Source: Candidatus Omnitrophota bacterium
GTDB lineage: Bacteria > Omnitrophota > Gorgyraeia > Duberdicusellales > 4484-171
Reading direction: 5' to 3'
NCBI GenBank assembly: GCA_024231025.1
Contig: JAAEQW010000297.1
Span: 14,851-78,850 of the forward strand
Length of the DNA stretch: 64,000 nt
The notes under the pieces were generated by a model. It worked only from the letters and a program-made list of their open reading frames with translations. It was not told the origin of the DNA and did not search any database. The position numbers and the translations under genes were made by a program. Below are positions 44,312-58,388 of the stretch, one piece after another (the first letter of the stretch is position 1; every line of letters begins with the position of its first letter).

Positions 44312-45333
44312 AGGTGTTATTAGCTTGCGAAAGAAGTGGTGGGCATGTATTTCCGGCGCTTGGTCTTGCCGATAAAATCAAAGAAAGCTCCCCCAAAGAT
44401 CAAATCTATTTTTTTATTACCTCAAAATCTCTTCAAAAATACGTACGAGATGATAAATATCTTGTCTTTGGTAGATGTTTCAATAAAAGAAGAGTTATTA
44501 TTGAGGGTTTTTGGCGTTTTTTTGAAAGCATTTACCTTCTTATTAAAATTAACCCCGATAAGGTTGTTGGATTCGGTGGCAGAGACAGTTTTTTTCTGTT
44601 ATTTTTTGCGGCACTAACGCGAAAGAATACAGCGATTTATGAGCTTAACAGTAGTTTTGGCAGGGCCAATAAGGTACTTTCTTTGTTTGTTGGTAAGGTT
44701 TTTTCTGCTTTTGATTCACTTAGAGCCAGGAATGTGGAAGTGGTTGGTTTGGTGCTTAGAAAAAATTTAATCAAAATTGATCGCAAGACCGCCCTTGGAG
44801 ACCTTAACTTAAAAGATAAGCCTATAATTTTGTGTTTCGGTGGTAGTCAGGGGGCAGGTTTCATAAATAGAATTTTCATGAAATTAGTAAAAGAGATCAG
44901 TCTTGATTGTCAGATTATTCATTTAACTGGCAAAAGAGATTACTTGGAAATAAAAGAGTTTTATAATACAATAAAAAACAGCAGTGTTGTGATGGATTTT
45001 TGTCCTACCATGGAAAGGCTTTATAGCGTCGCAGATATAGTTATTTCGCGTGCGGGGGCATCAACCCTAGCGGAAATAGCGCATTATGCTATCGCGCCAA
45101 TTTTAATTGGACATCCTACCGGTAGCGGGCATCAGGATCAAAATGCCCTTTATTTCAAAGAAAAGAATGCTGCTTTTGTTTTTAAAGAAAAGGATTTTTT
45201 ATTTAGTAATTTTAAGGCGGCGGTAGAGAGGCTTCTTAACGATGAAGCTTTACGGAAAAGAATGAGCGACAATTTGAAAAGTGTATCTTTAGGGGTTAGT
45301 TTTGAGCAGTTTTGTAAAAATAGTAATTTTTAG
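44308..45333 (+). CDS. murG: UDP-GlcNAc:undecaprenyl-PP-MurNAc-pentapeptide GlcNAc transferase
   Basis: GT28 protein: N-terminal GGHVFPAL, C-terminal RAGASTLAE. Confidence 0.8.
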   Translation: MKVLLACERSGGHVFPALGLADKIKESSPKDQIYFFITSKSLQKYVRDDKYLVFGRCFNKRRVIIEGFWRFFESIYLLIKINPDKVVGFGGRDSFFLLFFAALTRKNTAIYELNSSFGRANKVLSLFVGKVFSAFDSLRARNVEVVGLVLRKNLIKIDRKTALGDLNLKDKPIILCFGGSQGAGFINRIFMKLVKEISLDCQIIHLTGKRDYLEIKEFYNTIKNSSVVMDFCPTMERLYSVADIVISRAGASTLAEIAHYAIAPILIGHPTGSGHQDQNALYFKEKNAAFVFKEKDFLFSNFKAAVERLLNDEALRKRMSDNLKSVSLGVSFEQFCKNSNF

Positions 45334-46096
45334 CATACTTCTGTTTCCTAATTTAGCTTTTGGTAATGAGAGTGACTTTCGCAAGTCGCGTTGCGAACAT
45401 TTTATTATTCAGTACCATAAGGATGTAGATGCAAGCTATGTGCGCAAGGTTAGAGACAAAAGTGAGAGATTGTATCGTAATATAACCCAAGAGTTTAATT
45501 TAATACGTGATAAACTTTGGACTTGGGATAACCGAGCAAAAATTTTTGTAGCTAAGGATAAAGACGATTATATTAGCGACTACAGTTGCCCTGCCTGGTC
45601 GGGCGCGTGCGTGGATTATGTAAATAAAATAATTTATACCTATCCTGATCAGAAGAGGTTTGATTCAATTTTGGCGCATGAGCTGACGCATATAATTTTT
45701 CGCGAATATGTGGGTAATGCGCAATTAGAACTTTGGCTTGATGAGGCTATTGCGGTTTACGTTGAGAACAAGTACGGCCAAGATGTGAATTCTTATCTTT
45801 TGTCGCATGTGAAAAAGGCTCTTATTAGGGATCAGCACATAAAATTTAATGATTTAAGAAAAATAACCGCTCTCACGCTTGATACGAGTTCCCAAGATCG
45901 AGTCAGTTTATTTTATGCTCAGTCATTTTCAGTAGTTCATTTTTTAATAAAACGATATGGGCGAGATCGCTTTGCGTATTTTTTATTTTTTTTAAAGAAT
46001 GGCAAAAACTTTGAATCTGCGCTTTCTCGCGGGTTTGCTTCGCTTTCTAGCGCAGATGATTTAGAAAAGAAGTGGAAAAAATTTTATTTAGAGTAA
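45302..46096 (+). CDS. secreted HExxH zinc metallopeptidase (peptidase MA-like) inserted in the dcw cluster
   Basis: Signal peptide MSSFVKIVIFSILLFPNLAFG. HELTHIIF ... WLDEAIAVYVE resembles the gluzincin HExxH plus downstream Glu ligand. Confidence 0.6.
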   Translation: MSSFVKIVIFSILLFPNLAFGNESDFRKSRCEHFIIQYHKDVDASYVRKVRDKSERLYRNITQEFNLIRDKLWTWDNRAKIFVAKDKDDYISDYSCPAWSGACVDYVNKIIYTYPDQKRFDSILAHELTHIIFREYVGNAQLELWLDEAIAVYVENKYGQDVNSYLLSHVKKALIRDQHIKFNDLRKITALTLDTSSQDRVSLFYAQSFSVVHFLIKRYGRDRFAYFLFFLKNGKNFESALSRGFASLSSADDLEKKWKKFYLE

Positions 46097-49360: not shown

Positions 49361-50170
49361 GTGGTTAGAAAAAAAAATAAGAAGAAAAAAAATACGCGTA
49401 ATAAAAAATCCAAAATTGACTTTAATCCCAAAATCTTTATTGCTATTTTTTTAATATTTTTAGGAATAGGCGCTACTTTTTATTTGGGAAAAATCATTTA
49501 TGAATCGAAAGTTTTTACGGTTAAGAAAATTGACTCAAACGTAAAACTCGATGATGACTTGATTGCTTCAGTTAAGGGGCGTTCGCTGTTTACCGTCAAC
49601 ACGAGCTATCTTTATAAGCGCATTTCTAGTAATAATGTTGAATATAAGGACGTTTCTATTGTGAAAAAATTTCCAGATACATTACGAATCGAAATTGTTA
49701 AACGAGTTCCATTCGCGCAGATAAAGGCTGAGAAGTTTTTTTTGATTGATCGTGATGGTGTTATTCTTAATAGCGGTCAACGCACTGCTTTCGATAGCCT
49801 AATAGCGATAGAGCTAGCTGCTCGGTCTAATCCATTGCATCGCGGTGCTCACATCAAAGAGAAACAATTAGATATTGCCTTTGTTTTAATGGATGAATTA
49901 GTTAAAAATAGATTTTTTAAAAAAAATCCAGTTACACTAATAAATATAACATCTAAACAGGCATTGTACTTTAACGTTGAAGCATTAGCTTCTAACAGTC
50001 AAGAAGAGGAATTTAGCGTAAAAGTGAAAGTGATAGTAGGCGAAGATGATTTTGCGCATAAATTGCATGTTTTTGAAAGTTTAATAAATAATAAGATAAA
50101 AGCCGATCTTCATTTAGTTAAATATATTGATTTAAGATACAAAAAGGCTTATATCGGATACAAAAGGTAG
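49361..50170 (+). CDS. ftsQ: cell division protein FtsQ/DivIB (POTRA)
   Basis: Basic N-terminus, one TM, POTRA-like region. GTG start with SD AAGGAGG 8 nt upstream. Located between ddl and ftsA. Confidence 0.6.
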   Translation: MVRKKNKKKKNTRNKKSKIDFNPKIFIAIFLIFLGIGATFYLGKIIYESKVFTVKKIDSNVKLDDDLIASVKGRSLFTVNTSYLYKRISSNNVEYKDVSIVKKFPDTLRIEIVKRVPFAQIKAEKFFLIDRDGVILNSGQRTAFDSLIAIELAARSNPLHRGAHIKEKQLDIAFVLMDELVKNRFFKKNPVTLINITSKQALYFNVEALASNSQEEEFSVKVKVIVGEDDFAHKLHVFESLINNKIKADLHLVKYIDLRYKKAYIGYKR

Positions 50171-50178
50171 TTAATTTT

Positions 50179-51375
50179 GTGGTGACCAAGCAAAAGAGTG
50201 TAAGGGGGTCTAATAGAGTGAAGGGGATTTGTGGTATAGATATTAATACTGATCGAATTTTTATATCTTTTGCTGCTGAGAAAAAATCTTCTCCTGTTTT
50301 TCGAGGAGAGATCGAAGTCGCAATACCGTTGAAAGAGCCAAATATTTTAGAATTTTTGAAAGAGCATGTCCAGGAGATCGTGCAACAAATAAGAGATAAC
50401 GAGAAAACTTACGGACTCAAAGTTGAAAAAGTATATCTTAAACTGCCATGGGGCATGGAAACTGTTAAAACTTATGAGGAAACAATTTCCCTGAAGGCGC
50501 GAAAAAAAATTGCCCCTAAAGACATATCTTTTGCTAAAAAAGCTTTAGAGACTGCAGCGTTAGATTGGGATGATTTTTGTGTGCATCATTTTCCGGTAAC
50601 TTATGGCATTGAAGGCAAAGTAGTAAACCATTTGCCGATAGGGTTGTGGACAAGGAAGATAAGGCTGAAATCTAATTTAGTTGTTATCAAGGACAAATTA
50701 CGTCGGGAAACTAAAGATATGTTTGATAATTTAGAAATGGGTTTTGAAGGTTTTGTGGCACCAGCAGTGAGTGCTTTTTCGGGATCGTTTATTGATATCG
50801 ACAACAGTGGCAAGCAGGCTGTGGTATCAGTAGGGTATGATCAATCGCACTTGGTTATTGTAACCGAGGGGGTAATTACGATAGTTAAAAGTTTTGATTT
50901 TGGTTTAAAGGGAGCCATTTCGATTTTGGCAGATAAATTTTCTTTACCATTTTCTTTGGCTCAGAAAATATTTGATCGATATGTATTTTTGCAAGAGCGG
51001 CCCATCGCAGCTGCAGAATCGTTTAATAAGGAAGTGAGCGTTAAAAGTGGTGATTCATATATTAATTTAAGTATAAATAGTTTAAATACGACACTAATCC
51101 AATATATCGAAAATAACCTACAAAGCATTTTAGGGTGCTTAGATTCATCGGGTGTCACGGTATCCTTTTTAGGGCGTTTAAACGCGAAAGAAGGATTTCG
51201 AAATATTCTTGAAAAGTTTGTTTCTTTTAATATTGCACCTTTACCTTATGCAGTTAATCTTTCTTCTTCTTTTGGATGTCTTCGTTATGGGGCGTTATCT
51301 TTTCTTGAAAAGGATCGTCGACGAAAAAGAACACTAATGGAGCGTTTAATGAAGGTGTATAAGGAATATTTTTAA
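50179..51375 (+). CDS. ftsA: cell division protein FtsA (divergent actin-like ATPase)
   Basis: GICGIDINTDRIF N-terminal actin fold. Position after ftsQ. Divergent; start codon uncertain (GTG). Confidence 0.6.
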   Translation: MVTKQKSVRGSNRVKGICGIDINTDRIFISFAAEKKSSPVFRGEIEVAIPLKEPNILEFLKEHVQEIVQQIRDNEKTYGLKVEKVYLKLPWGMETVKTYEETISLKARKKIAPKDISFAKKALETAALDWDDFCVHHFPVTYGIEGKVVNHLPIGLWTRKIRLKSNLVVIKDKLRRETKDMFDNLEMGFEGFVAPAVSAFSGSFIDIDNSGKQAVVSVGYDQSHLVIVTEGVITIVKSFDFGLKGAISILADKFSLPFSLAQKIFDRYVFLQERPIAAAESFNKEVSVKSGDSYINLSINSLNTTLIQYIENNLQSILGCLDSSGVTVSFLGRLNAKEGFRNILEKFVSFNIAPLPYAVNLSSSFGCLRYGALSFLEKDRRRKRTLMERLMKVYKEYF

Positions 51376-51411: not shown

Positions 51412-53355
51412 ATGGAAAAAGACCAAATCTTAGAAGATCTTTTTAAAAGTTTTAGGGTTGCGATTAACAATGCGACCCTTTATTTTGATCAACACCCAAT
51501 TTTTTTGCATGCAGTGTGCGATCTTAAAGAAAAGATTGATAAGATTTTTTTAATCTTTGATCCACTGGTTATTGGCATTACGCCTAAATCGTTGCTGGTC
51601 AACGACACAGTTTTAGAGAATAGCAAGGTTTACCATGAGCTTGCCGGCACACTCCATCGACGTAAAATCAAACGCATAACAATTGAGAAAGATGTATCTG
51701 TCCACGAAATTGCATTGCTTCTTTCAAAGCTTGGCTTATCTGCAAAAGACGCAATTAAAAGTGGTGGATTTAATGCAATCGAAATTCCTCATATTATCGT
51801 TGAGAACTTGGATTACATGCAATTTTTAAAAGAAGGCGGTAAACAGCAAAAAGATATATGGTCGGTTTTGCTTGCAAAGGCAGTAAAGGATAATAATAAA
51901 AGTGAAATTAGCGAGTTTGTTGATAATTTTGATGTTATTGCTAATAAGTTTCAAGCTGTAGATTTTATTGAAAATGATGAAATAAGAAGCAATTTGCATA
52001 CCTTTTTAGAGCATTTACATACTAATGATCATGATCAATTCAAAAAGTGCACAAAAGAGGTGATAAAGCTTATTTTAAGTGACAAAAATATTCCGAAAGA
52101 TATAAATTTAGATAATATAAAAAGTTTTTTTGATAAGTTTGAAACAGGTGAGCTGTCGAATACTTTGTGGGAGCAAGTAGTTACAGATGAGAAATTTGAT
52201 TTCTTAACTTTTAATTTATTTTCTCAGCTTGTTAATCAAGAAAAGCATAATGAAATTGCTCTTTCTTTGGCCAGTAAGATTACAAAGGGTGATCTTTTGA
52301 AAAACAATCCGCAAGCAGTTTCGCGTATACGGAAATTGTTCTCTTCTGACATCGATTCTGATGTGTCAAAAGTTTACAGGAAAACATTATCATCTATTTT
52401 GCAAGACACTCTTATCGAAGGAGAGCGCTCTATCGATCGCAAGCAAGTTAATTGCAATTATCGATATATTTTGCTTAATTTGTTTATTTTGGAGAGGAGG
52501 CTGACCTGGTTGAAGTTGATATCAGAAAGAATTCTAAGTGAATGGAATAGGGCAATGGAAGAAAATGATGCAGAGTACTTGCAACTTTTTATAGAGGCAT
52601 TAGACAAAAAGAAACGTCTTGATCCGAGTCTTGAGTCAGCGTTCGTTGATACTGAACGAGAAATATTTGGATTAGTCGAAGAAAAAGTTCTAAAGGGTGA
52701 AGTAACCAGTTGTTTTGAAGTTTTTTATAATACATCATCCAAAAGTTTTATTGGAATAACGCCTTATACCGCAGCGATTTTTAAAGACAGAAAGATTAAT
52801 CGCTCGATAATGCAGCTATACTTCAAATTTTTTGGATATCAAGTTGATCATTTTAAGAGAGAGATGAACCGCAATCGGCATGATTTAGAGTTTATCCGAG
52901 AAATTATTGATAGCGTCAAAACTATTGATTCTCCTTTTAGCCTTGAAGTACTGAAGTTTATTTTTAATTTTTCTAATATTCTTTTGAAAGTTGATGCAAT
53001 CAAAGCAATGCGAGAGCTAGCAGCTTACTCATTGTATGATGGAGATTTACTACTTTCTTTAATTAAAAAAAGGAACATTTTCTTGAAAAGGGAAGCACTG
53101 GCTGTTATTGCTACGGATGAGGCGTTAACTTCTCAGGCGGTGAAAGAGCTTTTTAATCAATCTAATTTTTTTGGATTTCGTAATAATATATTTTTGGAAA
53201 ACATAAGAATGGCTGAGGATGTTAAATTTTTTGGTGCAAGAGAATGTTTAATTTCCTTAAGCAGAGATAAGTCATTTTGGCGCAAAGAGGTTGCCAAGGG
53301 GGCAAAACAACTTTTAGAAGATTGGGATAGAGGCAAAAAAAATGAGCGTAACTGA
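51412..53355 (+). CDS. hypothetical protein; N-terminal domain paralogous to the N-domain of the downstream HD-GYP protein, no HD domain
   Basis: 647 aa. The N-terminal ~100 aa (ATLYFDQHPIFL..., LVIGITP..., SVHEIALLLSKL) aligns with residues 1-100 of the 53342 protein. No HD or GYP motifs found. Confidence 0.6.
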   Translation: MEKDQILEDLFKSFRVAINNATLYFDQHPIFLHAVCDLKEKIDKIFLIFDPLVIGITPKSLLVNDTVLENSKVYHELAGTLHRRKIKRITIEKDVSVHEIALLLSKLGLSAKDAIKSGGFNAIEIPHIIVENLDYMQFLKEGGKQQKDIWSVLLAKAVKDNNKSEISEFVDNFDVIANKFQAVDFIENDEIRSNLHTFLEHLHTNDHDQFKKCTKEVIKLILSDKNIPKDINLDNIKSFFDKFETGELSNTLWEQVVTDEKFDFLTFNLFSQLVNQEKHNEIALSLASKITKGDLLKNNPQAVSRIRKLFSSDIDSDVSKVYRKTLSSILQDTLIEGERSIDRKQVNCNYRYILLNLFILERRLTWLKLISERILSEWNRAMEENDAEYLQLFIEALDKKKRLDPSLESAFVDTEREIFGLVEEKVLKGEVTSCFEVFYNTSSKSFIGITPYTAAIFKDRKINRSIMQLYFKFFGYQVDHFKREMNRNRHDLEFIREIIDSVKTIDSPFSLEVLKFIFNFSNILLKVDAIKAMRELAAYSLYDGDLLLSLIKKRNIFLKREALAVIATDEALTSQAVKELFNQSNFFGFRNNIFLENIRMAEDVKFFGARECLISLSRDKSFWRKEVAKGAKQLLEDWDRGKKNERN

Positions 53356-54682
53356 TAAAATCAAAGTTTTTTTTAGAGATCTGATGTCGTCGTTGCAAAG
53401 CGCTCAAATTTATACTACTTGTCACCCAAAATTCAATGAGTCGTTAGATAAAACGTATAGCCAGCTTAAAGACATCCTTAGTTCTAGAGAGCACTTTACT
53501 ATTGGTATTGTTGGAGATGAGATTGCTTTCGAGTCGGAAATATTTTTTGATTTAAGCAATAATATGAGACAAGTTGTTAGTTATTTAAAAGAAAAAGGTG
53601 TTGAAAAACTGTCGTTTTGTCGTGGAGTTAAAAGGGACGAGTTAATCAAATTTCTAGAATTTTTAATGATATCGAAGGGAGATTTTAATACAGAAACAGA
53701 AGAGTATTTTTTAACTATGGGAATTCGTAATATTTCTGCAGGTAAGCTTAGCGCCGAGGCAGGTGAACCGATCAGTAGCGTAAAAAGTGCGATAAACTAT
53801 CTTAAACGTTACGAAGGATCGATGGACAAAATTGCTGACTCGTTAACGAAAATGCTTGATAGTGGCACAATTGATTCCTTAGAATTGGGCTTTACTGTCA
53901 CCAATGTGATGGAAAATTTAATTGGTAGATATCATGAATTTTTTAAACTAACTACAGTTAAGCAATATGATTTAGGAACATTTCGACATATTCTGAATGT
54001 TTCTGTTTTGTCGATGCATTTTGCCGTTAAATTGGGATTTGTTCATAAGGACTGTCTTGATATAGGGATTGCGGCCCTCTTTCATGATATCGGCAAGCTT
54101 TATGTGTCGCGCAAGATAATACAAAAATCGGATAAATTGGCTGAAGAAGAGTTTGATAAGATGCGTAGCCACACTCTTTTGGGGGCTGAGATTCTTTTGA
54201 AGAATGTGGATAGTTTGGGAACGTTACCGGTAATCGTTGCCTTTGAACACCATTTGCGATATAACTTAAAGGGCTATCCGAAAGTACCTTTCGCTAAAGC
54301 GCCGCACGTAGCTTCGTTGCTTATTTCTGTGTGTGATGTGTATGATGCGCTTATACAAAGAAGAAGCTATAAAAGAAGTTATCCGCCAGAAATGATCTAT
54401 AACCTTATGATGCGGGAAAGAGGAAATCTCTTTGATCCAAAGTTATTGGATATGTTTTTTAACATAATGGGAGTTTGGCCAATCGGAACAATCGTTGAGC
54501 TAAGTGATGCAACAGTTGCCATTGTTCGGGAAATTAACGAATCAGATAAGTTTTCTCCCAAGGTGGAAGTCGTTCATCCTTCGAAATCTGGAATTATGGA
54601 CCTAGGGAAGATGAAAAATATTAACATCGAAAAATCGCTGAATCCCTTTGCGGAAGGTAAGCAATTTGTTGACTTAGTTTAG
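53342..54682 (+). CDS. HD-GYP domain phosphodiesterase with N-terminal domain of unknown function (DUF3391-like)
   Basis: HD domain LFHDIGKLYV. HHLRYNLKGYPK contains the GYP signature. 14-nt overlap with the upstream paralog. Confidence 0.75.
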   Translation: MSVTDKIKVFFRDLMSSLQSAQIYTTCHPKFNESLDKTYSQLKDILSSREHFTIGIVGDEIAFESEIFFDLSNNMRQVVSYLKEKGVEKLSFCRGVKRDELIKFLEFLMISKGDFNTETEEYFLTMGIRNISAGKLSAEAGEPISSVKSAINYLKRYEGSMDKIADSLTKMLDSGTIDSLELGFTVTNVMENLIGRYHEFFKLTTVKQYDLGTFRHILNVSVLSMHFAVKLGFVHKDCLDIGIAALFHDIGKLYVSRKIIQKSDKLAEEEFDKMRSHTLLGAEILLKNVDSLGTLPVIVAFEHHLRYNLKGYPKVPFAKAPHVASLLISVCDVYDALIQRRSYKRSYPPEMIYNLMMRERGNLFDPKLLDMFFNIMGVWPIGTIVELSDATVAIVREINESDKFSPKVEVVHPSKSGIMDLGKMKNINIEKSLNPFAEGKQFVDLV

Positions 54683-54787
54683 GATATACGGATAAAATAT
54701 ATTTACCCTAGCGAATAATTGAGATATAATAAGTATTGTTAATCGCCGGTAGGATTTTGTTCATTAATCATTAAACGATGGAAGGTT

Positions 54788-55147
54788 ATGAAGAAAAAAG
54801 TTCTTGTAGTTGATGATGAAAAAGAGATTGTTGATTTTCTTGAAAAATTTCTAAGAAGGTTAGATATAACTGTAATGAAGGCAGTCAGCGGAGGAGAAGC
54901 TGTAGAGCTTTGCAAAAAAGATTCGCCTGATTGTGTTTTTCTGGATATTCAAATGCCGGATAAGGATGGATTAACCGTTCTTCAGGAGATAATTGATTTA
55001 AATGCGGCCCTAAAGGTAATTATGATTACGGGCAAGGAAAAGCTAGAATTTCAAGAAAAAGCAAAAAAGATCGGGGCAATAGACTACATAACAAAACCTT
55101 TGGATTTGAGTGACCTTAACGAAAAAGTTAAAGCGTATCTTTCTTGA
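54788..55147 (+). CDS. single-domain response regulator (CheY-like receiver)
   Basis: VLVVDDE...FLDIQMPDKDGL...IMITGK: acidic pocket, phospho-acceptor Asp, T/K positions. Confidence 0.8.
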   Translation: MKKKVLVVDDEKEIVDFLEKFLRRLDITVMKAVSGGEAVELCKKDSPDCVFLDIQMPDKDGLTVLQEIIDLNAALKVIMITGKEKLEFQEKAKKIGAIDYITKPLDLSDLNEKVKAYLS

Positions 55148-55233
55148 TGTATGAAAAATTATAAAGAACGTCGGGGAAGTTCATGGGAAGGATCTTGATG
55201 GTTGCTAAATGCGACTAGATTTTCTTAAGCGTT

Positions 55234-56400
55234 ATGAGAGCTAATCACAGAAAAGACTTAGAAAATATTGCTCGGCAAATGATCCTTGTTCATAATGCTG
55301 ATGCGCTTATTGAGTTGGTTCTGCGTACAATTGTTAGTAATTTAAGAGTTACACATGCTGGAATTCTTATTTACGACAAAACCAGAGAAGAATATGTTGT
55401 AAAAATCTCCAAAGGACGTCATGGTTTTAAAATTCCTTCCGGTTTCGTTAAAGTTACTAAAAAAAATCCGCTGATAGAATACTTCACTAATAAAAAGAGA
55501 AATTTTCCTAAAGATTTTATTCTTTTCACTAAGATTGACGAATATATTCGTAATTCAAAAAAAAGCCGGGCAACAAGAGCTTTTCTTCAAGATTTGAAGG
55601 TTAATTTAAGTTTTCATCAAGCGCGAGTTTGCGTGCCTGGGTTTTTTGGTAAAGACTTAATTGGGATTCTCTTTCTTGGGGATAAAGTCAGCAAAAAGAG
55701 GTTTTCAGAAGGGGAGCTGGGGTTTTTGTCAGTTCTTGCCTCGGATGTTGTTATGGCCTTAAAAAATGCTTGGCTGGTTGAAGATATAAGCACTCAGCTA
55801 GCGAATAATAAGCGTTTATTCTTGCAAATGGTAGCAACTTTAGCGTCTAGCATTGAAGCTAAGGATAAATATACGATGGGCCATACTGAACGGGTTATGG
55901 AATATTCTCTCGATATTGCTAATAAGATGAAGAATGAGAAAAATATTGTTGACTGGGGTAAATTTTTGGAAAATTTAAAGATATCAGCGCTCTTACATGA
56001 CATTGGTAAGATTGGGATACCAGAGAGCATTTTAAATAAACCCGATTCCTTAACCGACGAAGAACGAAAAGTTATTCGCCAACACCCTTTAATCGGGGTT
56101 AATATTTTAAAAAATGTTGATGAACTTGACGAAGCCCTTTTAGGAGTAAAATTCCATCATGAACGATACGATGGCAAGGGATATCCTTCCGGGTTGAGTG
56201 GTGAGGACATCCCTTTTATCGCTTCTGTGATCTCTCTTGCTGATGCTTTTGATGCGATGACTACCGATAGGCCGTATCGTAAGGCATTGTCATTAAGGGA
56301 GGCAGTTGCTGAAATTAAACGCAATAAGGGGAAGCAATTTGCCCCTGACGTCGTAGATGCTTTTTTAAAAGCTTATATTTCCAGAGATATCGAAAAATGA
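55234..56400 (+). CDS. GAF domain - HD-GYP phosphodiesterase
   Basis: N-terminal GAF-like region. HD-GYP: HTERVMEYS, LLHDIGKIGIP, HHERYDGKGYPSGL. Confidence 0.8.
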   Translation: MRANHRKDLENIARQMILVHNADALIELVLRTIVSNLRVTHAGILIYDKTREEYVVKISKGRHGFKIPSGFVKVTKKNPLIEYFTNKKRNFPKDFILFTKIDEYIRNSKKSRATRAFLQDLKVNLSFHQARVCVPGFFGKDLIGILFLGDKVSKKRFSEGELGFLSVLASDVVMALKNAWLVEDISTQLANNKRLFLQMVATLASSIEAKDKYTMGHTERVMEYSLDIANKMKNEKNIVDWGKFLENLKISALLHDIGKIGIPESILNKPDSLTDEERKVIRQHPLIGVNILKNVDELDEALLGVKFHHERYDGKGYPSGLSGEDIPFIASVISLADAFDAMTTDRPYRKALSLREAVAEIKRNKGKQFAPDVVDAFLKAYISRDIEK

Positions 56401-57512
56401 AAAAAGTAAATATTTTTTATATTTCAGACTTTGGCGGCCATAGTATAGCTGCAAAAAACTTGAAAGAAGCTTTTTATCATCGAGATTCGCAGGTGCGGGT
56501 TTTGAGCCTTAATGGTTTTGGCCATTTTTATCCTCGCAGCGAAAAAGTGGTAGATTTTATATATACGATTATAATCAAACACTTTCCTTTTATTTGGGGT
56601 ACTACTTATGATCGCAAGGGAGTGATAAAGCATTTAACACCTATTCAGCGTTGGATAAATAAATTATCTTTTCGTAAGCTATCACGTCTTGTAAGGGACT
56701 TTAATCCAGATTGTCTTGTAGCGACTCAGGCTTTTCCATGCGGTATGCTGGCCGATTTTAAAAAGAAGCTAGGGCTTAAAACACCACTGGTGGCAGTAGT
56801 TACTGATTATCACCCTCATCGTTTTTGGATTCATCCTTTTGTTGATAAATATGTTGTGGCATGCTCTCAAGCCAAAGAGGCGTTAATCCAGGAAGGTGTA
56901 GACGCAGATAAAGTAAAAATTCTGGGTATTCCTATTTCGGTTAGGTTTTTAACGTCATTCCCTAAAGATGAAGTAGCTAGAGAGATTGGCTTTCGTAATG
57001 ATTTGCCATCAGTATTGCTTATGGGTGGTGCCTTAGGTATGGGTGCGATTAAGGAAGTCGCTCAACAGCTGGATGAATTAAATTTGGACTTTCAGATGAT
57101 TGTGGTTTGTGGGCGCAACGAAAGATTGCACGATTGGTTTGATGAAAATATAGATAAATTCAAAAAACCTATACATTATTTCGGTTATATTGATTTTGTA
57201 AATAAAATTATGGATTTTTCCGACATAATTGTTACTAAAGGTGGAGGAATAACAATATCGGAGGCTTTAGCCAAAGGTATGGCAATAATTATTGATAATC
57301 CAATTCCCGGGCAAGAAGAGCGCAACGTTAACTATCTATTTAAAAAGAATGCCATCATCGAAGCTGATAATTCGAAAGGGGTAGTTGGTGCAGTAGAGGC
57401 TCTCTTGCAGGATAAGAAAAAAATATATGCACTTAAAGAAAAAGCTAAAGAGAATTCTATGATTGATTCGTCTTTGCGAATAGTCGATTTAATACTTGGG
57501 GAGATTGGTTAG
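56397..57512 (+). CDS. MGDG-synthase/UgtP-like diacylglycerol glycosyltransferase (GT28)
   Basis: N-terminal KKVNIFYISDFGGHSIAAKNL resembles the MGDG_synth/UgtP N-domain. C-terminal GT-B domain (VTKGGGITISEAL). Confidence 0.65.
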   Translation: MKKVNIFYISDFGGHSIAAKNLKEAFYHRDSQVRVLSLNGFGHFYPRSEKVVDFIYTIIIKHFPFIWGTTYDRKGVIKHLTPIQRWINKLSFRKLSRLVRDFNPDCLVATQAFPCGMLADFKKKLGLKTPLVAVVTDYHPHRFWIHPFVDKYVVACSQAKEALIQEGVDADKVKILGIPISVRFLTSFPKDEVAREIGFRNDLPSVLLMGGALGMGAIKEVAQQLDELNLDFQMIVVCGRNERLHDWFDENIDKFKKPIHYFGYIDFVNKIMDFSDIIVTKGGGITISEALAKGMAIIIDNPIPGQEERNVNYLFKKNAIIEADNSKGVVGAVEALLQDKKKIYALKEKAKENSMIDSSLRIVDLILGEIG

Positions 57513-57536
57513 TTTTAAATTTTGAGTTTGTATTTT

Positions 57537-58388
57537 ATGTATTATATTTTTCTTGTTGTAAAAGTCTTAGCCCTTCTTCTTCCACGCAGTATAGGATACT
57601 TCATAGCAAAGAATCTTGCACTACTCCAATACTATTTATGCAAAAATGATAGAGAGAATGTTTTGTATAATCTTGAACCGATTATCGAAGATAAAACAAA
57701 AATTAAAAAAGTTGCGAAAAAAGTTTTTATAAATTTTGCATACTATCTTGTTGATTTTTTTAGGTGTTCTAAGTTTAATAGTGATTTTATAAAAAAATAT
57801 GTAAAAGTTAGTGGTTTAGAAAATGTGGATCAATCTTTAAGAAGTGATGACGGAGTAGTTCTTTTAACGGCGCATCTTGGTAATTATGAGCTTGCAGGGA
57901 CGATAACTTCTCTTCTGGGGTATAATTTTAGCGCTGTTGCCCTGCCGCATAAAGATAAGCGAACAAATAATCTTTTTAACCACCAGCGTCAGGTAGCTGG
58001 AATAAAAGTTATTCCTACTGGAGCTGGGGTAAAGAAGTGCTTTTCAGCTCTTAAGGGTAATGGTGTATTGGGCCTTTTAGGAGATCGTGATTTTTCCGGT
58101 AAAGGGTTAAAGACAAAGATGTTTTCTCGATATGCGTATTTGCCTAGAGGGTTTGCTTTTTTTGCTTTGAAAGTTGGTGTTAATGTGGTGCCGTGTTTTA
58201 TGATTCGAAAACGTAAATACCATTATCATTTTTATTTTGAGAAGCCAATTATCGCTCAACGTAGCGGAGCGATGAGCCAGGAAACTATTGTTGAAGATTA
58301 CACCAAAGTCTTAGAGCGATATATACAGAAATATCCGGATCAGTGGTATCTGTTTATCAAGTATTGGATAGAAAATGATAAGTCGTAA
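57537..58388 (+). CDS. LpxL/HtrB-family lysophospholipid acyltransferase (lipid A or glycolipid acyltransferase)
   Basis: N-terminal TM. LTAHLGNYELAG corresponds to the LpxL HxxxxE/D catalytic motif. The ORF track starts at a TTG; the first ATG was used. Confidence 0.7.
   Translation: MYYIFLVVKVLALLLPRSIGYFIAKNLALLQYYLCKNDRENVLYNLEPIIEDKTKIKKVAKKVFINFAYYLVDFFRCSKFNSDFIKKYVKVSGLENVDQSLRSDDGVVLLTAHLGNYELAGTITSLLGYNFSAVALPHKDKRTNNLFNHQRQVAGIKVIPTGAGVKKCFSALKGNGVLGLLGDRDFSGKGLKTKMFSRYAYLPRGFAFFALKVGVNVVPCFMIRKRKYHYHFYFEKPIIAQRSGAMSQETIVEDYTKVLERYIQKYPDQWYLFIKYWIENDKS

Follow-up and report, generated by a model that had tools for sequence, protein, structure and literature searches.

The HD-GYP protein encoded just after the division genes in the window (the 64,000-nt stretch of Candidatus Omnitrophota DNA analysed here) belongs to a conserved two-gene pair, and this protein and the product of the preceding gene probably constitute an obligate two-subunit cyclic-dinucleotide phosphodiesterase module, in which an enzyme and a scaffold or regulator dock via paralogous N-terminal domains. 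Four open reading frames of 647, 446, 119 and 388 aa, all on the plus strand, were confirmed where the sequence-only reading had placed them, and only the first two form the conserved unit. The stop of the gene for the 647-aa protein (X647; 51412..53355) and the start of the HD-GYP gene (446 aa; 53342..54682) overlap by 14 nt (53342..53355), as read directly in the sequence. In all 35 informative metagenome loci (those in which 1.7 kb or more of sequence precedes the N-domain HD-GYP gene), which span a GC content of 43-72%, a gene for an N-domain/HEAT protein lies directly upstream. Among the window and loci L001-L037, the two genes are adjacent on the same strand in 30 of 30 pairs and overlap by 1-19 nt in 26 of them. 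The pair co-occurs without exception in the loci examined, which cover several bacterial lineages, and persists where the genomic context changes, including in all distant relatives. Judged from homology, the module appears to be ancient, because homology reaches far in both genes across this range of GC content: the upstream partners in distant loci are related to X647 over 506 columns (E = 6e-8), and their HD-GYP neighbors match the 446-aa family at E = 1e-67.

Residues 1-137 of X647 (51412..51822, plus strand) and residues 1-140 of the HD-GYP protein (53342..53761, plus strand; 56% mean identity among 120 homologs) form the shared N-domain. Pairwise BLASTP similarity between the two proteins was not significant (E = 0.47), with the alignment in register (residues 11-83 versus 11-77). 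Profile-profile comparison by hhalign established the paralogy that had been proposed from the sequence, both with small alignments (8 versus 7 sequences; probability 96.4%, E = 1.4e-9) and with large ones (69 members of about 640 aa for the X647 family versus 120 sequences; probability 97.6%, E = 4.2e-12, residues 1-137 versus 1-140). The same relationship was recovered independently among the distant pairs (probability 95.3%, E = 2e-8), and in cross-family searches over about 30 loci the HMM of each family matched the N-terminus of the other with E values of 1e-7 to 1e-14. Y24 and H28 are invariant and F31, G55, E99, L100 and F103 near-invariant in both families, and the N-terminal motifs originally picked out by eye fall exactly on these columns. 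The domain of X647 is predicted with an alpha/beta fold (pLDDT 93, pTM 0.87), and it matched no Pfam family, no PDB sequence and, in Foldseek searches with the domain model, no PDB fold; residues 1-205 of the 446-aa protein likewise gave nothing in the Pfam search. The N-domain common to the enzyme and its partner is a previously undescribed domain; since no structure related to it is known, any function assigned to it is by inference.

Following the N-domain and a helical linker, the 446-aa protein carries an HD-GYP domain at residues 206-375 (53957..54466, plus strand; HD_5 57 bits at residues 207-368 against a cut-off of 27.2, HD 48 bits) and ends in a conserved domain of about 70 aa (residues 376-446; 54467..54679, plus strand), which has 60% mean identity among 120 homologs and no Pfam match. 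On this architecture, the protein is most likely an HD-GYP phosphodiesterase. More than 120 full-length homologs share 50-57% identity, and all of those with an organism name come from Omnitrophica/Omnitrophota. In the Omnitrophota family the enzyme keeps its metal-binding and GYP residues, and the orthologs share H216, H248, D249, K252, H277, H303, H304, G311, Y312, P313, D332 and D335 without exception; the protein also matches the active phosphodiesterase PmGH (PDB 4mcw) over about 190 residues at E = 4.9e-34; the two observations together support catalytic competence. However, the substrate and activity are uncertain, because the family varies at the position that corresponds to the third-metal glutamate of PmGH and has HHL in place of HHE in the motif. 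In PmGH this glutamate binds the third iron. The partner enzyme in L041 has a degenerate HD-GYP domain (FHDLA, ESHL, AYP), and the pair therefore does not depend on hydrolysis in all lineages. A link of the pair to c-di-GMP turnover is suggested by a PAS-GGDEF gene directly upstream of it in the same locus and by a GGDEF-AAA_16-N-domain-HEAT fusion protein adjoining it in L048.

X647 itself gave no Pfam family and reached no HEAT threshold in the Pfam search, which agrees with the original view that only the second protein of the two carries HD-GYP. The further suggestion that X647 is a catalytically dead HD-GYP paralog was rejected, because its homology to the HD-GYP protein ends at about residue 140 and is followed by an alpha-solenoid. 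This region (residues 138-647; 51823..53352, plus strand), once described as lacking any recognizable domain, does have a recognizable fold: in the AlphaFold2 model of the whole protein (pLDDT 84) everything after the N-domain is helical, Foldseek returned only HEAT/ARM solenoids (importin, SF3B1 and CAND1-type) with weak scores, and the homologous distant partners carry Pfam HEAT_2 above threshold (1e-12 to 1e-30, 46-106 bits). X647 is therefore best described as a non-enzymatic partner composed of the shared N-domain and a HEAT-like alpha-solenoid.

These features suggest a model in which the overlapping genes would allow X647 and the HD-GYP protein to be co-translated in a fixed proportion, and the two proteins would associate through their homologous N-domains into a heterodimer that stands in place of, or beside, the homodimer that HD-GYP enzymes commonly form. 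As a scaffold or regulatory subunit, the HEAT solenoid may then either bring the enzyme to a cellular target or control when it is active, and the degradation of c-di-GMP, or of a related cyclic dinucleotide, would thereby be local or conditional. It is unlikely that the N-domains are instead separate copies of a sensor domain for a small molecule or metal, with X647 and its HD-GYP partner answering the same signal side by side rather than as a complex. In the predicted model the invariant residues, which are polar or aromatic (Y24, H28, E99), are placed around the turn between helices 1 and 2 and on helix 4, as would be expected for a binding site, and, as sensor modules do, the N-domain also occurs attached behind GGDEF-AAA_16 in a fusion protein. 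GAF and dCache sensor domains also appear among the weak Foldseek matches of the N-domain, but these are not significant (E of roughly 1 and above, TM no higher than 0.27); moreover, strict adjacency and translational overlap are more typical of subunits of one complex, and a HEAT solenoid by itself carries no output activity.

The two-subunit module proposed here occupies, in the window, the end of a full dcw cluster that runs from mraZ to ddl and closes with an ftsQ-like gene (49361..50170, plus strand; POTRA_1 5e-6 and FtsQ_DivIB_C 1.4e-4, both above the Pfam cut-offs) and a divergent ftsA-like gene (50179..51375, plus strand). The latter matches TIGR01174 at 8.4e-9, but with 35 bits against a cut-off of 175.85; its family profile matches the PDB FtsA structure 7q6d at 1.2e-5, and ftsQ precedes it in all relatives examined. 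The pair follows where ftsZ is normally found, as had been noted, and no ftsZ was found after ftsA or elsewhere in the 64,000-nt window, within 10 kb of ftsA in 37 ftsA loci (the window, L001-L004, L006, L007 and L010-L040), or in the other loci checked. On the downstream side lie an MGDG-synthase-like GT28 gene and a lipid A acyltransferase-like gene (56397..58388, plus strand). The synteny with ftsA extends to relatives: of 28 Omnitrophota species with this FtsA type, 22 have the pair immediately behind ftsA. When closely related pairs were sampled from the HD-GYP side, only 1 of 7 was so placed; the description of the genes as lying immediately after the division genes thus holds for one Omnitrophota clade and fails elsewhere, and the position after ftsA is clade-specific. 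Because the module is inserted in this clade between ftsA and envelope-lipid genes, it is probably co-expressed with the late division and envelope genes.

A role of the pair in division is possible. In its strongest form, which is improbable, the pair would be part of the division machinery of FtsZ-less Omnitrophota: FtsA would recruit the HEAT solenoid as a scaffold that has taken over the gene position and perhaps some of the organizing role of FtsZ, and the HD-GYP enzyme would lower c-di-GMP locally, thereby licensing septal envelope synthesis. The frequency of the pair behind ftsA, the missing ftsZ and the envelope glycosyl- and acyltransferases downstream are consistent with such a role, as is the reported absence of FtsZ from four of five Omnitrophica genomes, three of which retain FtsA (Pende et al., 2021). 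However, another paper reports that dcw genes are highly conserved in Omnitrophota, so that FtsZ may not be missing throughout the phylum. The pair also lies in unrelated contexts, far from dcw genes, in ten loci (L005, L008, L009, L041, L042, L044, L045, L047, L048 and L049), as it does in all of the distant, higher-GC relatives, and the slot between ftsA and the lipid genes exists in four states, namely empty (four species), with the pair, with the pair and a CheY cassette, and with the CheY cassette alone (two species). In the empty state the MGDG-synthase-like and LpxL genes are directly 3′ of ftsA (L013, L026, L030 and L032).

These four states and the many other contexts of the pair also favor the suggestion, which has a little under an even chance of being correct, that the arrangement is incidental, the gap between ftsA and the lipid genes being a permissive insertion site at the end of an operon that has received several signaling cassettes functionally unrelated to their neighbors. 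The 105 nt that precede cheY contain promoter-like sites, in agreement with this, whereas the retention of the insertion across 22 species whose FtsA is only 32-45% identical to that of the window does not, and the ftsA-X647 spacing of -4 to 36 nt in most pair-bearing loci suggests co-transcription. An incidental position would concern only the link to division and is compatible with the two-subunit explanation of the pair.

The remaining two genes encode a stand-alone CheY-like receiver of 119 aa (54788..55147, plus strand; PF00072, Response_reg, 102 bits), whose translation contains D9, D10, D53, T81 and K103, and a protein of 388 aa (55234..56400, plus strand) with a GAF-like region (20.7 bits, just below the cut-off of 22.4) and a canonical HD-GYP domain (HD_5 127 bits; motif HHERYDGKGYP). 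The initial grouping of all four genes into one module is not sustained, because this cassette is optional: of the 22 species loci that carry the pair, only 5 also have it, and 2 further loci have it but lack the pair, the GAF-HD-GYP gene traveling with the CheY gene whether the pair is present or absent. It is a second signaling cassette, independently inserted in the slot after ftsA.

Among known systems, PmGH, the c-di-GMP phosphodiesterase of Persephonella marina, shares the HD, H, HH, D and GYP positions with the 446-aa family. It differs in its motif (HHE..DG.GYP versus HHL..(N/D)L.GYP), in its unrelated N-terminal region (4mcw is absent from the Foldseek matches of the N-domain model) and in having no described HEAT partner. 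RpfG and the PA4781-type REC-HD-GYP proteins likewise place an HD-GYP output under an N-terminal regulatory domain, and the receiver adjoining the second HD-GYP protein of the window recalls them; however, this receiver is a separate 119-aa protein within an optional cassette, and in the core enzyme the conserved regulatory element is not phosphorylation but the newly found N-domain plus a separate HEAT subunit. In DUF3391-HD-GYP proteins (PF11871), an uncharacterized domain of about 130 aa similarly lies directly N-terminal to HD-GYP. DUF3391, put forward earlier as a candidate for the N-domain, matched neither the window protein nor seven orthologs even at E values up to 10, and the sub-threshold matches in two distant relatives (17 bits against a cut-off of 27.8) are confined to profile positions 93-135, a stretch equivalent to the linker helix rather than the N-domain. 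E. coli YfiN and Sinorhizobium RgsP also tie c-di-GMP-metabolizing proteins to the division or envelope-growth machinery (PMC4992967; PMC6107284), but these are membrane GGDEF or GGDEF-EAL proteins localized experimentally to division or growth sites, whereas the pair is linked to division by gene position alone, in one clade. Finally, X647 resembles bacterial HEAT_2 and PBS-lyase-type HEAT proteins in its predicted alpha-solenoid and in the HEAT_2 scores of its distant family members, and its family is distinguished from them by the additional N-domain and the obligate linkage to an HD-GYP gene.

An HD-GYP enzyme whose ligand set is intact and a protein with a predicted HEAT-type solenoid, the two having paralogous N-terminal domains (N-domains), are encoded by an obligate, widely distributed and usually overlapping gene pair. 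In the window, the pair is found where a complete dcw cluster, on the + strand, reaches its 3′ end; the gene order of the cluster is mraZ, rsmH, a small ORF, ftsI, murE, murF, mraY, murD, ftsW, murG, a Peptidase_MA_2 gene, murC, murB, ddl, an ftsQ-like gene and an ftsA-like gene. The last of these (398 aa; 50179-51375, + strand) is followed on the same strand by the gene for the HEAT-type protein of 647 aa, X647, as the first ORF after ftsA (51412-53355), and by that for the HD-GYP protein of 446 aa (53342-54682), which overlaps the X647 gene by 14 nt, as read from the sequence. A 119-aa receiver (54788-55147; Response_reg in Pfam) and a 388-aa GAF-HD-GYP protein (55234-56400; HD_5 and a sub-threshold GAF in Pfam) are encoded next on the + strand. 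After these signalling cassettes stand the genes for a GT28/MGDG-synthase-like glycosyltransferase (56397-57512, +), a member of the same superfamily as MurG, and for a lipid A acyltransferase-like protein.

Some further features of the window are recorded here. The Peptidase_MA_2 gene (M1-like metallopeptidase; 45302-46096) is inserted between murG and murC, as it also is in three relatives (L003, L004 and L007). Nearly all long ORFs of the window (1-64000) lie on the + strand and every 2-kb bin shows positive GC skew (0.12-0.28), which indicates that the window is co-oriented along its full length with one replication arm. A hairpin with a 9-bp stem followed by a T-run (51454-51479) lies within the X647 gene, 42 nt into the coding sequence, where it covers the conserved NNATLYF codons; it is probably due to chance.

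The N-terminal similarity of the 647-aa and 446-aa proteins, on which the sequence-only reading was built, proved to be real, and the motifs quoted for it correspond to conserved columns of the N-domain. Pairwise BLASTP between the two proteins was not significant (E=0.47), though the alignment was in register. When small profiles were prepared by collecting 7 X647 orthologs, fetching their loci and taking the HD-GYP gene after each, profile-profile comparison of the two N-termini gave a probability of 96.4% (E=1.4e-9). With 69 X647-type and 120 HD-GYP-type sequences, hhalign raised this to 97.6% (E=4.2e-12), with the homology confined to residues 1-137 and 1-140, respectively, and the HMM of each family matched the N-terminus of the other in about 30 loci (E 1e-7 to 1e-14). 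Y24 and H28 are invariant in a combined alignment of 38 N-domains, and F31, G55, E99, L100 and F103 are nearly so. The same paralogy is independently present within the set of distant pairs (probability 95.3%, E=2e-8).

Modelled alone from the 38 sequences, the N-domain is predicted with a pLDDT of 93 and a pTM of 0.87, and its elements follow the order helix, helix, three short strands, helix, strand, two helices, strand. Foldseek comparison of this model with the PDB gave no significant match (best E about 1, TM at most 0.27, scattered over GAF, dCache, PCNA and HORMA structures), profile searches against PDB sequences gave nothing meaningful, and no Pfam family was matched. DUF3391 (PF11871), for which an HMM check had been suggested, matched neither the window protein nor its 7 orthologs; two distant relatives showed a partial, sub-threshold match limited to the linker helix. 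As judged by these profile and model searches, the N-domain is an uncharacterised domain, contained in neither Pfam nor the PDB. A search for homologs by word index, with the first 210 aa of the HD-GYP protein as query, gave none, and an exhaustive HMM search of 1.84 billion representatives revealed a large family: 4,645 proteins match at E<=1e-3 and 952 match at E<=1e-10, the 4,645 being representatives at 50% identity. The best 150 matches are an approximately equal mix of proteins of about 640 aa (X647-type) and about 445 aa (HD-GYP-type), plus fragments, and the representatives sampled that bear an organism name are all from Omnitrophota, save one cluster having Aminicenantes-labelled members.

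A protein identical to X647 (100%), annotated as hypothetical, is encoded in a Candidatus Omnitrophica metagenome-assembled genome; X647 matches no Pfam family. AlphaFold2 (8-sequence alignment, pLDDT 84) predicts an alpha/beta N-domain at residues 1-132 and then helical repeats over about 500 residues, for which Foldseek against the PDB returned generic HEAT/ARM solenoids alone (SF3B1, importin-beta, CAND1 and beta-catenin; TM about 0.2). Among the 8 close members of the family, Pfam HEAT_2 gave no better than E=0.2, in one of them. The upstream partners in distant, higher-GC metagenome loci carry HEAT_2 repeats well over threshold (1e-12 to 1e-30), and the alignment between them and the X647 family spans 506 columns (probability 94.7%, E=6e-8); X647 is therefore read as the N-domain and a diverged HEAT solenoid. 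The sequence-only reading had suggested a catalytically dead paralog; that X647 is a dead HD-GYP must be given up, because no trace of an HD domain is present: no match to the 8 members was obtained with HD and HD_5 profiles at E up to 10, the HD-GYP family is homologous only as far as about residue 140, and the remainder is predicted to be an alpha-solenoid. A degenerate HD-GYP is rejected as well.

The assignment of a catalytic-type HD-GYP domain to the second protein alone agrees with the profile matches. Residues 207-368 of the 446-aa protein match PF13487 (HD_5; 57.2 bits against a threshold of 27.2) and PF01966 (HD; 47.9 against 22), an HD-superfamily domain is matched in all 7 orthologs, and residues 1-205 have no Pfam match. 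H216, H248, D249, K252, H277, H303, H304, G311, Y312, P313, D332 and D335 are invariant in the orthologs, so that the metal-ligand set H...HD...H...HH...D and the GYP motif are present. More than 120 full-length homologs were found at 50-57% identity, and all those with an organism name are from Omnitrophica/Omnitrophota; mean identity among the homologs is 56% in the N-domain, 67% in the catalytic domain and 60% in a C-terminal domain of about 70 aa. This last domain (54467-54679), with the pattern GVWP.G..V.LSD..VA.V...N..D.F.P.VE..., is conserved at that level across 120 homologs and has no Pfam match.

Loci centred on the enzyme were sampled by scanning metagenomes with the HD-GYP alignment. 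Wherever an N-domain HD-GYP gene had at least 1.7 kb of upstream sequence (35 loci), an N-domain partner gene was found directly upstream on the same strand, and 26 of 30 pairs (window and loci L001-L037) overlap by 1-19 nt. The arrangement extends to distant relatives (24-29% identity, GC 43-72%), in which a gene for an N-domain/HEAT protein of about 540-640 aa directly precedes one for an N-domain HD-GYP protein of about 490 aa; this level of identity and range of GC suggest that they are probably from other phyla. Because the enzyme is always encoded with a HEAT partner carrying a paralogous N-domain, the arrangement points to a two-subunit enzyme. X647 and the HD-GYP protein would most likely be subunits of one complex joined via their N-domains, and the solenoid would serve as a scaffold or regulator that directs or gates hydrolysis of c-di-GMP or a related cyclic dinucleotide. 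Paralogous N-domains might also belong to two separate proteins that sense one ligand in parallel, which is the main alternative for the pair and, beside so constant a pairing, an unlikely one. In nine high-GC loci (66-72%), the pair is followed by a gene for a membrane protein of about 695 aa (692-947 aa) with GAF and MCP-signal domains (L056, 9851-11938, and equivalents in L058, L067, L070, L076, L078, L082, L087 and L089).

The two-subunit reading receives a connection to c-di-GMP from two further loci. In L041 (4849-9320), from a lineage with one Aminicenantes-labelled member, a PAS-GGDEF gene directly precedes the pair, and the HD-GYP partner is degenerate (FHDLA, ESHL, AYP) and has no precomputed Pfam match, which suggests that this version is receptor-like rather than catalytic. 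In L048 (9358-12915, - strand), a gene convergent to a canonical X647/HD-GYP pair encodes a 1,185-aa protein with GGDEF, AAA_16, N-domain (residues 663-786) and HEAT repeats, which can be aligned with the partner family across 497 columns at a probability of 96.5% and, by its predicted domains, is a third architecture of the N-domain/HEAT module. The GGDEF neighbour and the GGDEF fusion indicate that the module associates with both kinds of c-di-GMP enzyme.

The 398-aa protein encoded upstream of X647 scores 35 bits against TIGR01174 (cut-off 175.85), its family profile matches PDB FtsA at 1.2e-5, and its gene stands after ftsQ in every relative examined; it is read as a divergent FtsA. A scan with the FtsA-like alignment, limited to one genome per GTDB species, gave 31 loci, of which 28 extend beyond ftsA on its downstream side; the record titles are for the most part Candidatus Omnitrophota, and three of the records are complete chromosomes. 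The slot between ftsA and the envelope-lipid genes has four occupancy states: the pair in 17 of the 28 (ftsA-X647-HD-GYP-MGDG-LpxL, with contigs ending within X647 in two and within the HD-GYP gene in one), the pair followed by the CheY and GAF-HD-GYP genes and MGDG in 5, these two genes and MGDG without the pair in 2, and nothing in 4 (ftsA-MGDG-LpxL). The pair is thus syntenic with ftsA in 22 of 28 species, which goes against the refutation named in the sequence-only reading, a lack of ftsA synteny in all relatives. Of the four-gene module it had described, the pair is constant, and the CheY cassette, found with the pair in 5 loci and without it in 2, is separable. The receiver of this cassette matches PF00072 (102.2 bits against 30.2), with D9, D10, D53, T81 and K103 present in the translation, and the N-terminal half of the 388-aa protein falls below threshold for PF01590 (GAF; 20.7 against 22.4) and GAF_2 (17.5 against 28.6). 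Eleven records with the Omnitrophota-type ddl-ftsQ-ftsA block, mostly then the pair, are titled 'Methanosarcinales archaeon' (L015) or 'uncultured Planctomycetia' (L010, L014, L017, L023, L024, L030, L034, L036, L037 and L040), and are probably mis-binned or mislabelled contigs.

Since the GT28/MGDG gene directly follows ftsA where the slot is empty, envelope-lipid genes come immediately after the dcw cluster in this clade. In the clade of the window, the module has its place at the end of the dcw operon, where joint expression with ftsA and these genes is probable. Promoter and terminator scans were uninformative, promoter-like sites being fewer than in shuffled sequence. The pair also occurs outside the dcw cluster. 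Close relatives (43-52% identity; L042, L044, L045, L047, L048 and L049) have it with no ftsA upstream, L106 alone among the close relatives in the enzyme-centred sample shows the ftsA context, and L005, L008, L009 and L041 also carry the pair elsewhere. That the space after ftsA is simply a permissive insertion slot is the main alternative for the location, to which we give close to an even chance, if slightly less; it is compatible with the two-subunit model and does not contradict that reading of the pair.

The pair had been described as occupying the usual place of ftsZ, and no ftsZ was found there. The search included 10 kb on either side of ftsA, contig permitting, in the 37 loci carrying the gene; neither an FtsZ-like ORF (phmmer, E up to 1e-3, with an E. 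coli FtsZ query) nor a relaxed tubulin signature GGGTGTG was detected in the window or in 41 loci (733 kb in total). The literature disagrees on FtsZ/dcw conservation in Omnitrophota: Omnitrophica are described as lacking FtsZ by Pende et al. (2021), whose supplementary table marks it absent from 4 of the 5 genomes, FtsA being retained in 3 of these 4, and a 2025 paper reports dcw genes as highly conserved in Omnitrophota. From the ftsA flanks and Pende et al. (2021), FtsZ is likely to be absent genome-wide in this clade. In this clade the dcw cluster has a divergent ftsA as its last gene and, instead of a nearby ftsZ, the pair, which bears on FtsZ-less division of PVC-group bacteria. In those Omnitrophota that would have FtsA and no FtsZ, the pair after ftsA could conceivably be part of an FtsZ-independent divisome, in which FtsA would recruit the solenoid scaffold and the phosphodiesterase would clear c-di-GMP locally, triggering septal envelope synthesis. 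Gene position is the sole link of the pair to division, and this role is considered improbable because most other lineages have the pair at other places and, within the clade, it is missing from this site in some members.

HD-GYP, REC and HEAT are known families. Among c-di-GMP phosphodiesterases, the HD-GYP class is, to our knowledge, the one understood least, and its N-terminal regulatory domains are for the most part uncharacterised. Full-text literature searches gave no description of an HD-GYP/HEAT pair or of HD-GYP enzymes in Omnitrophota. An anti-phage defence system was considered and rejected, PADLOC giving weak Cas3-HD and REC-level matches only. More cautiously, and apart from any role in division, the N-domain could represent a new and widespread domain for heterodimerisation or sensing, and the pair an unrecognised two-subunit class of HD-GYP enzyme; the hypothesis of a two-subunit enzyme is concrete and testable in E. 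coli. The closest solved structure to the 446-aa protein is PmGH (4mcw), an active c-di-GMP phosphodiesterase (E=4.9e-34). The motif of the 446-aa protein is HHL..NLKGYP, whereas that of canonical HD-GYP domains is HHE..DG.GYP. In PmGH, the glutamate that we take to bind the third iron precedes the first histidine by four residues; it aligns with a variable position in the 446-aa family, and the family may therefore have a two-metal site.
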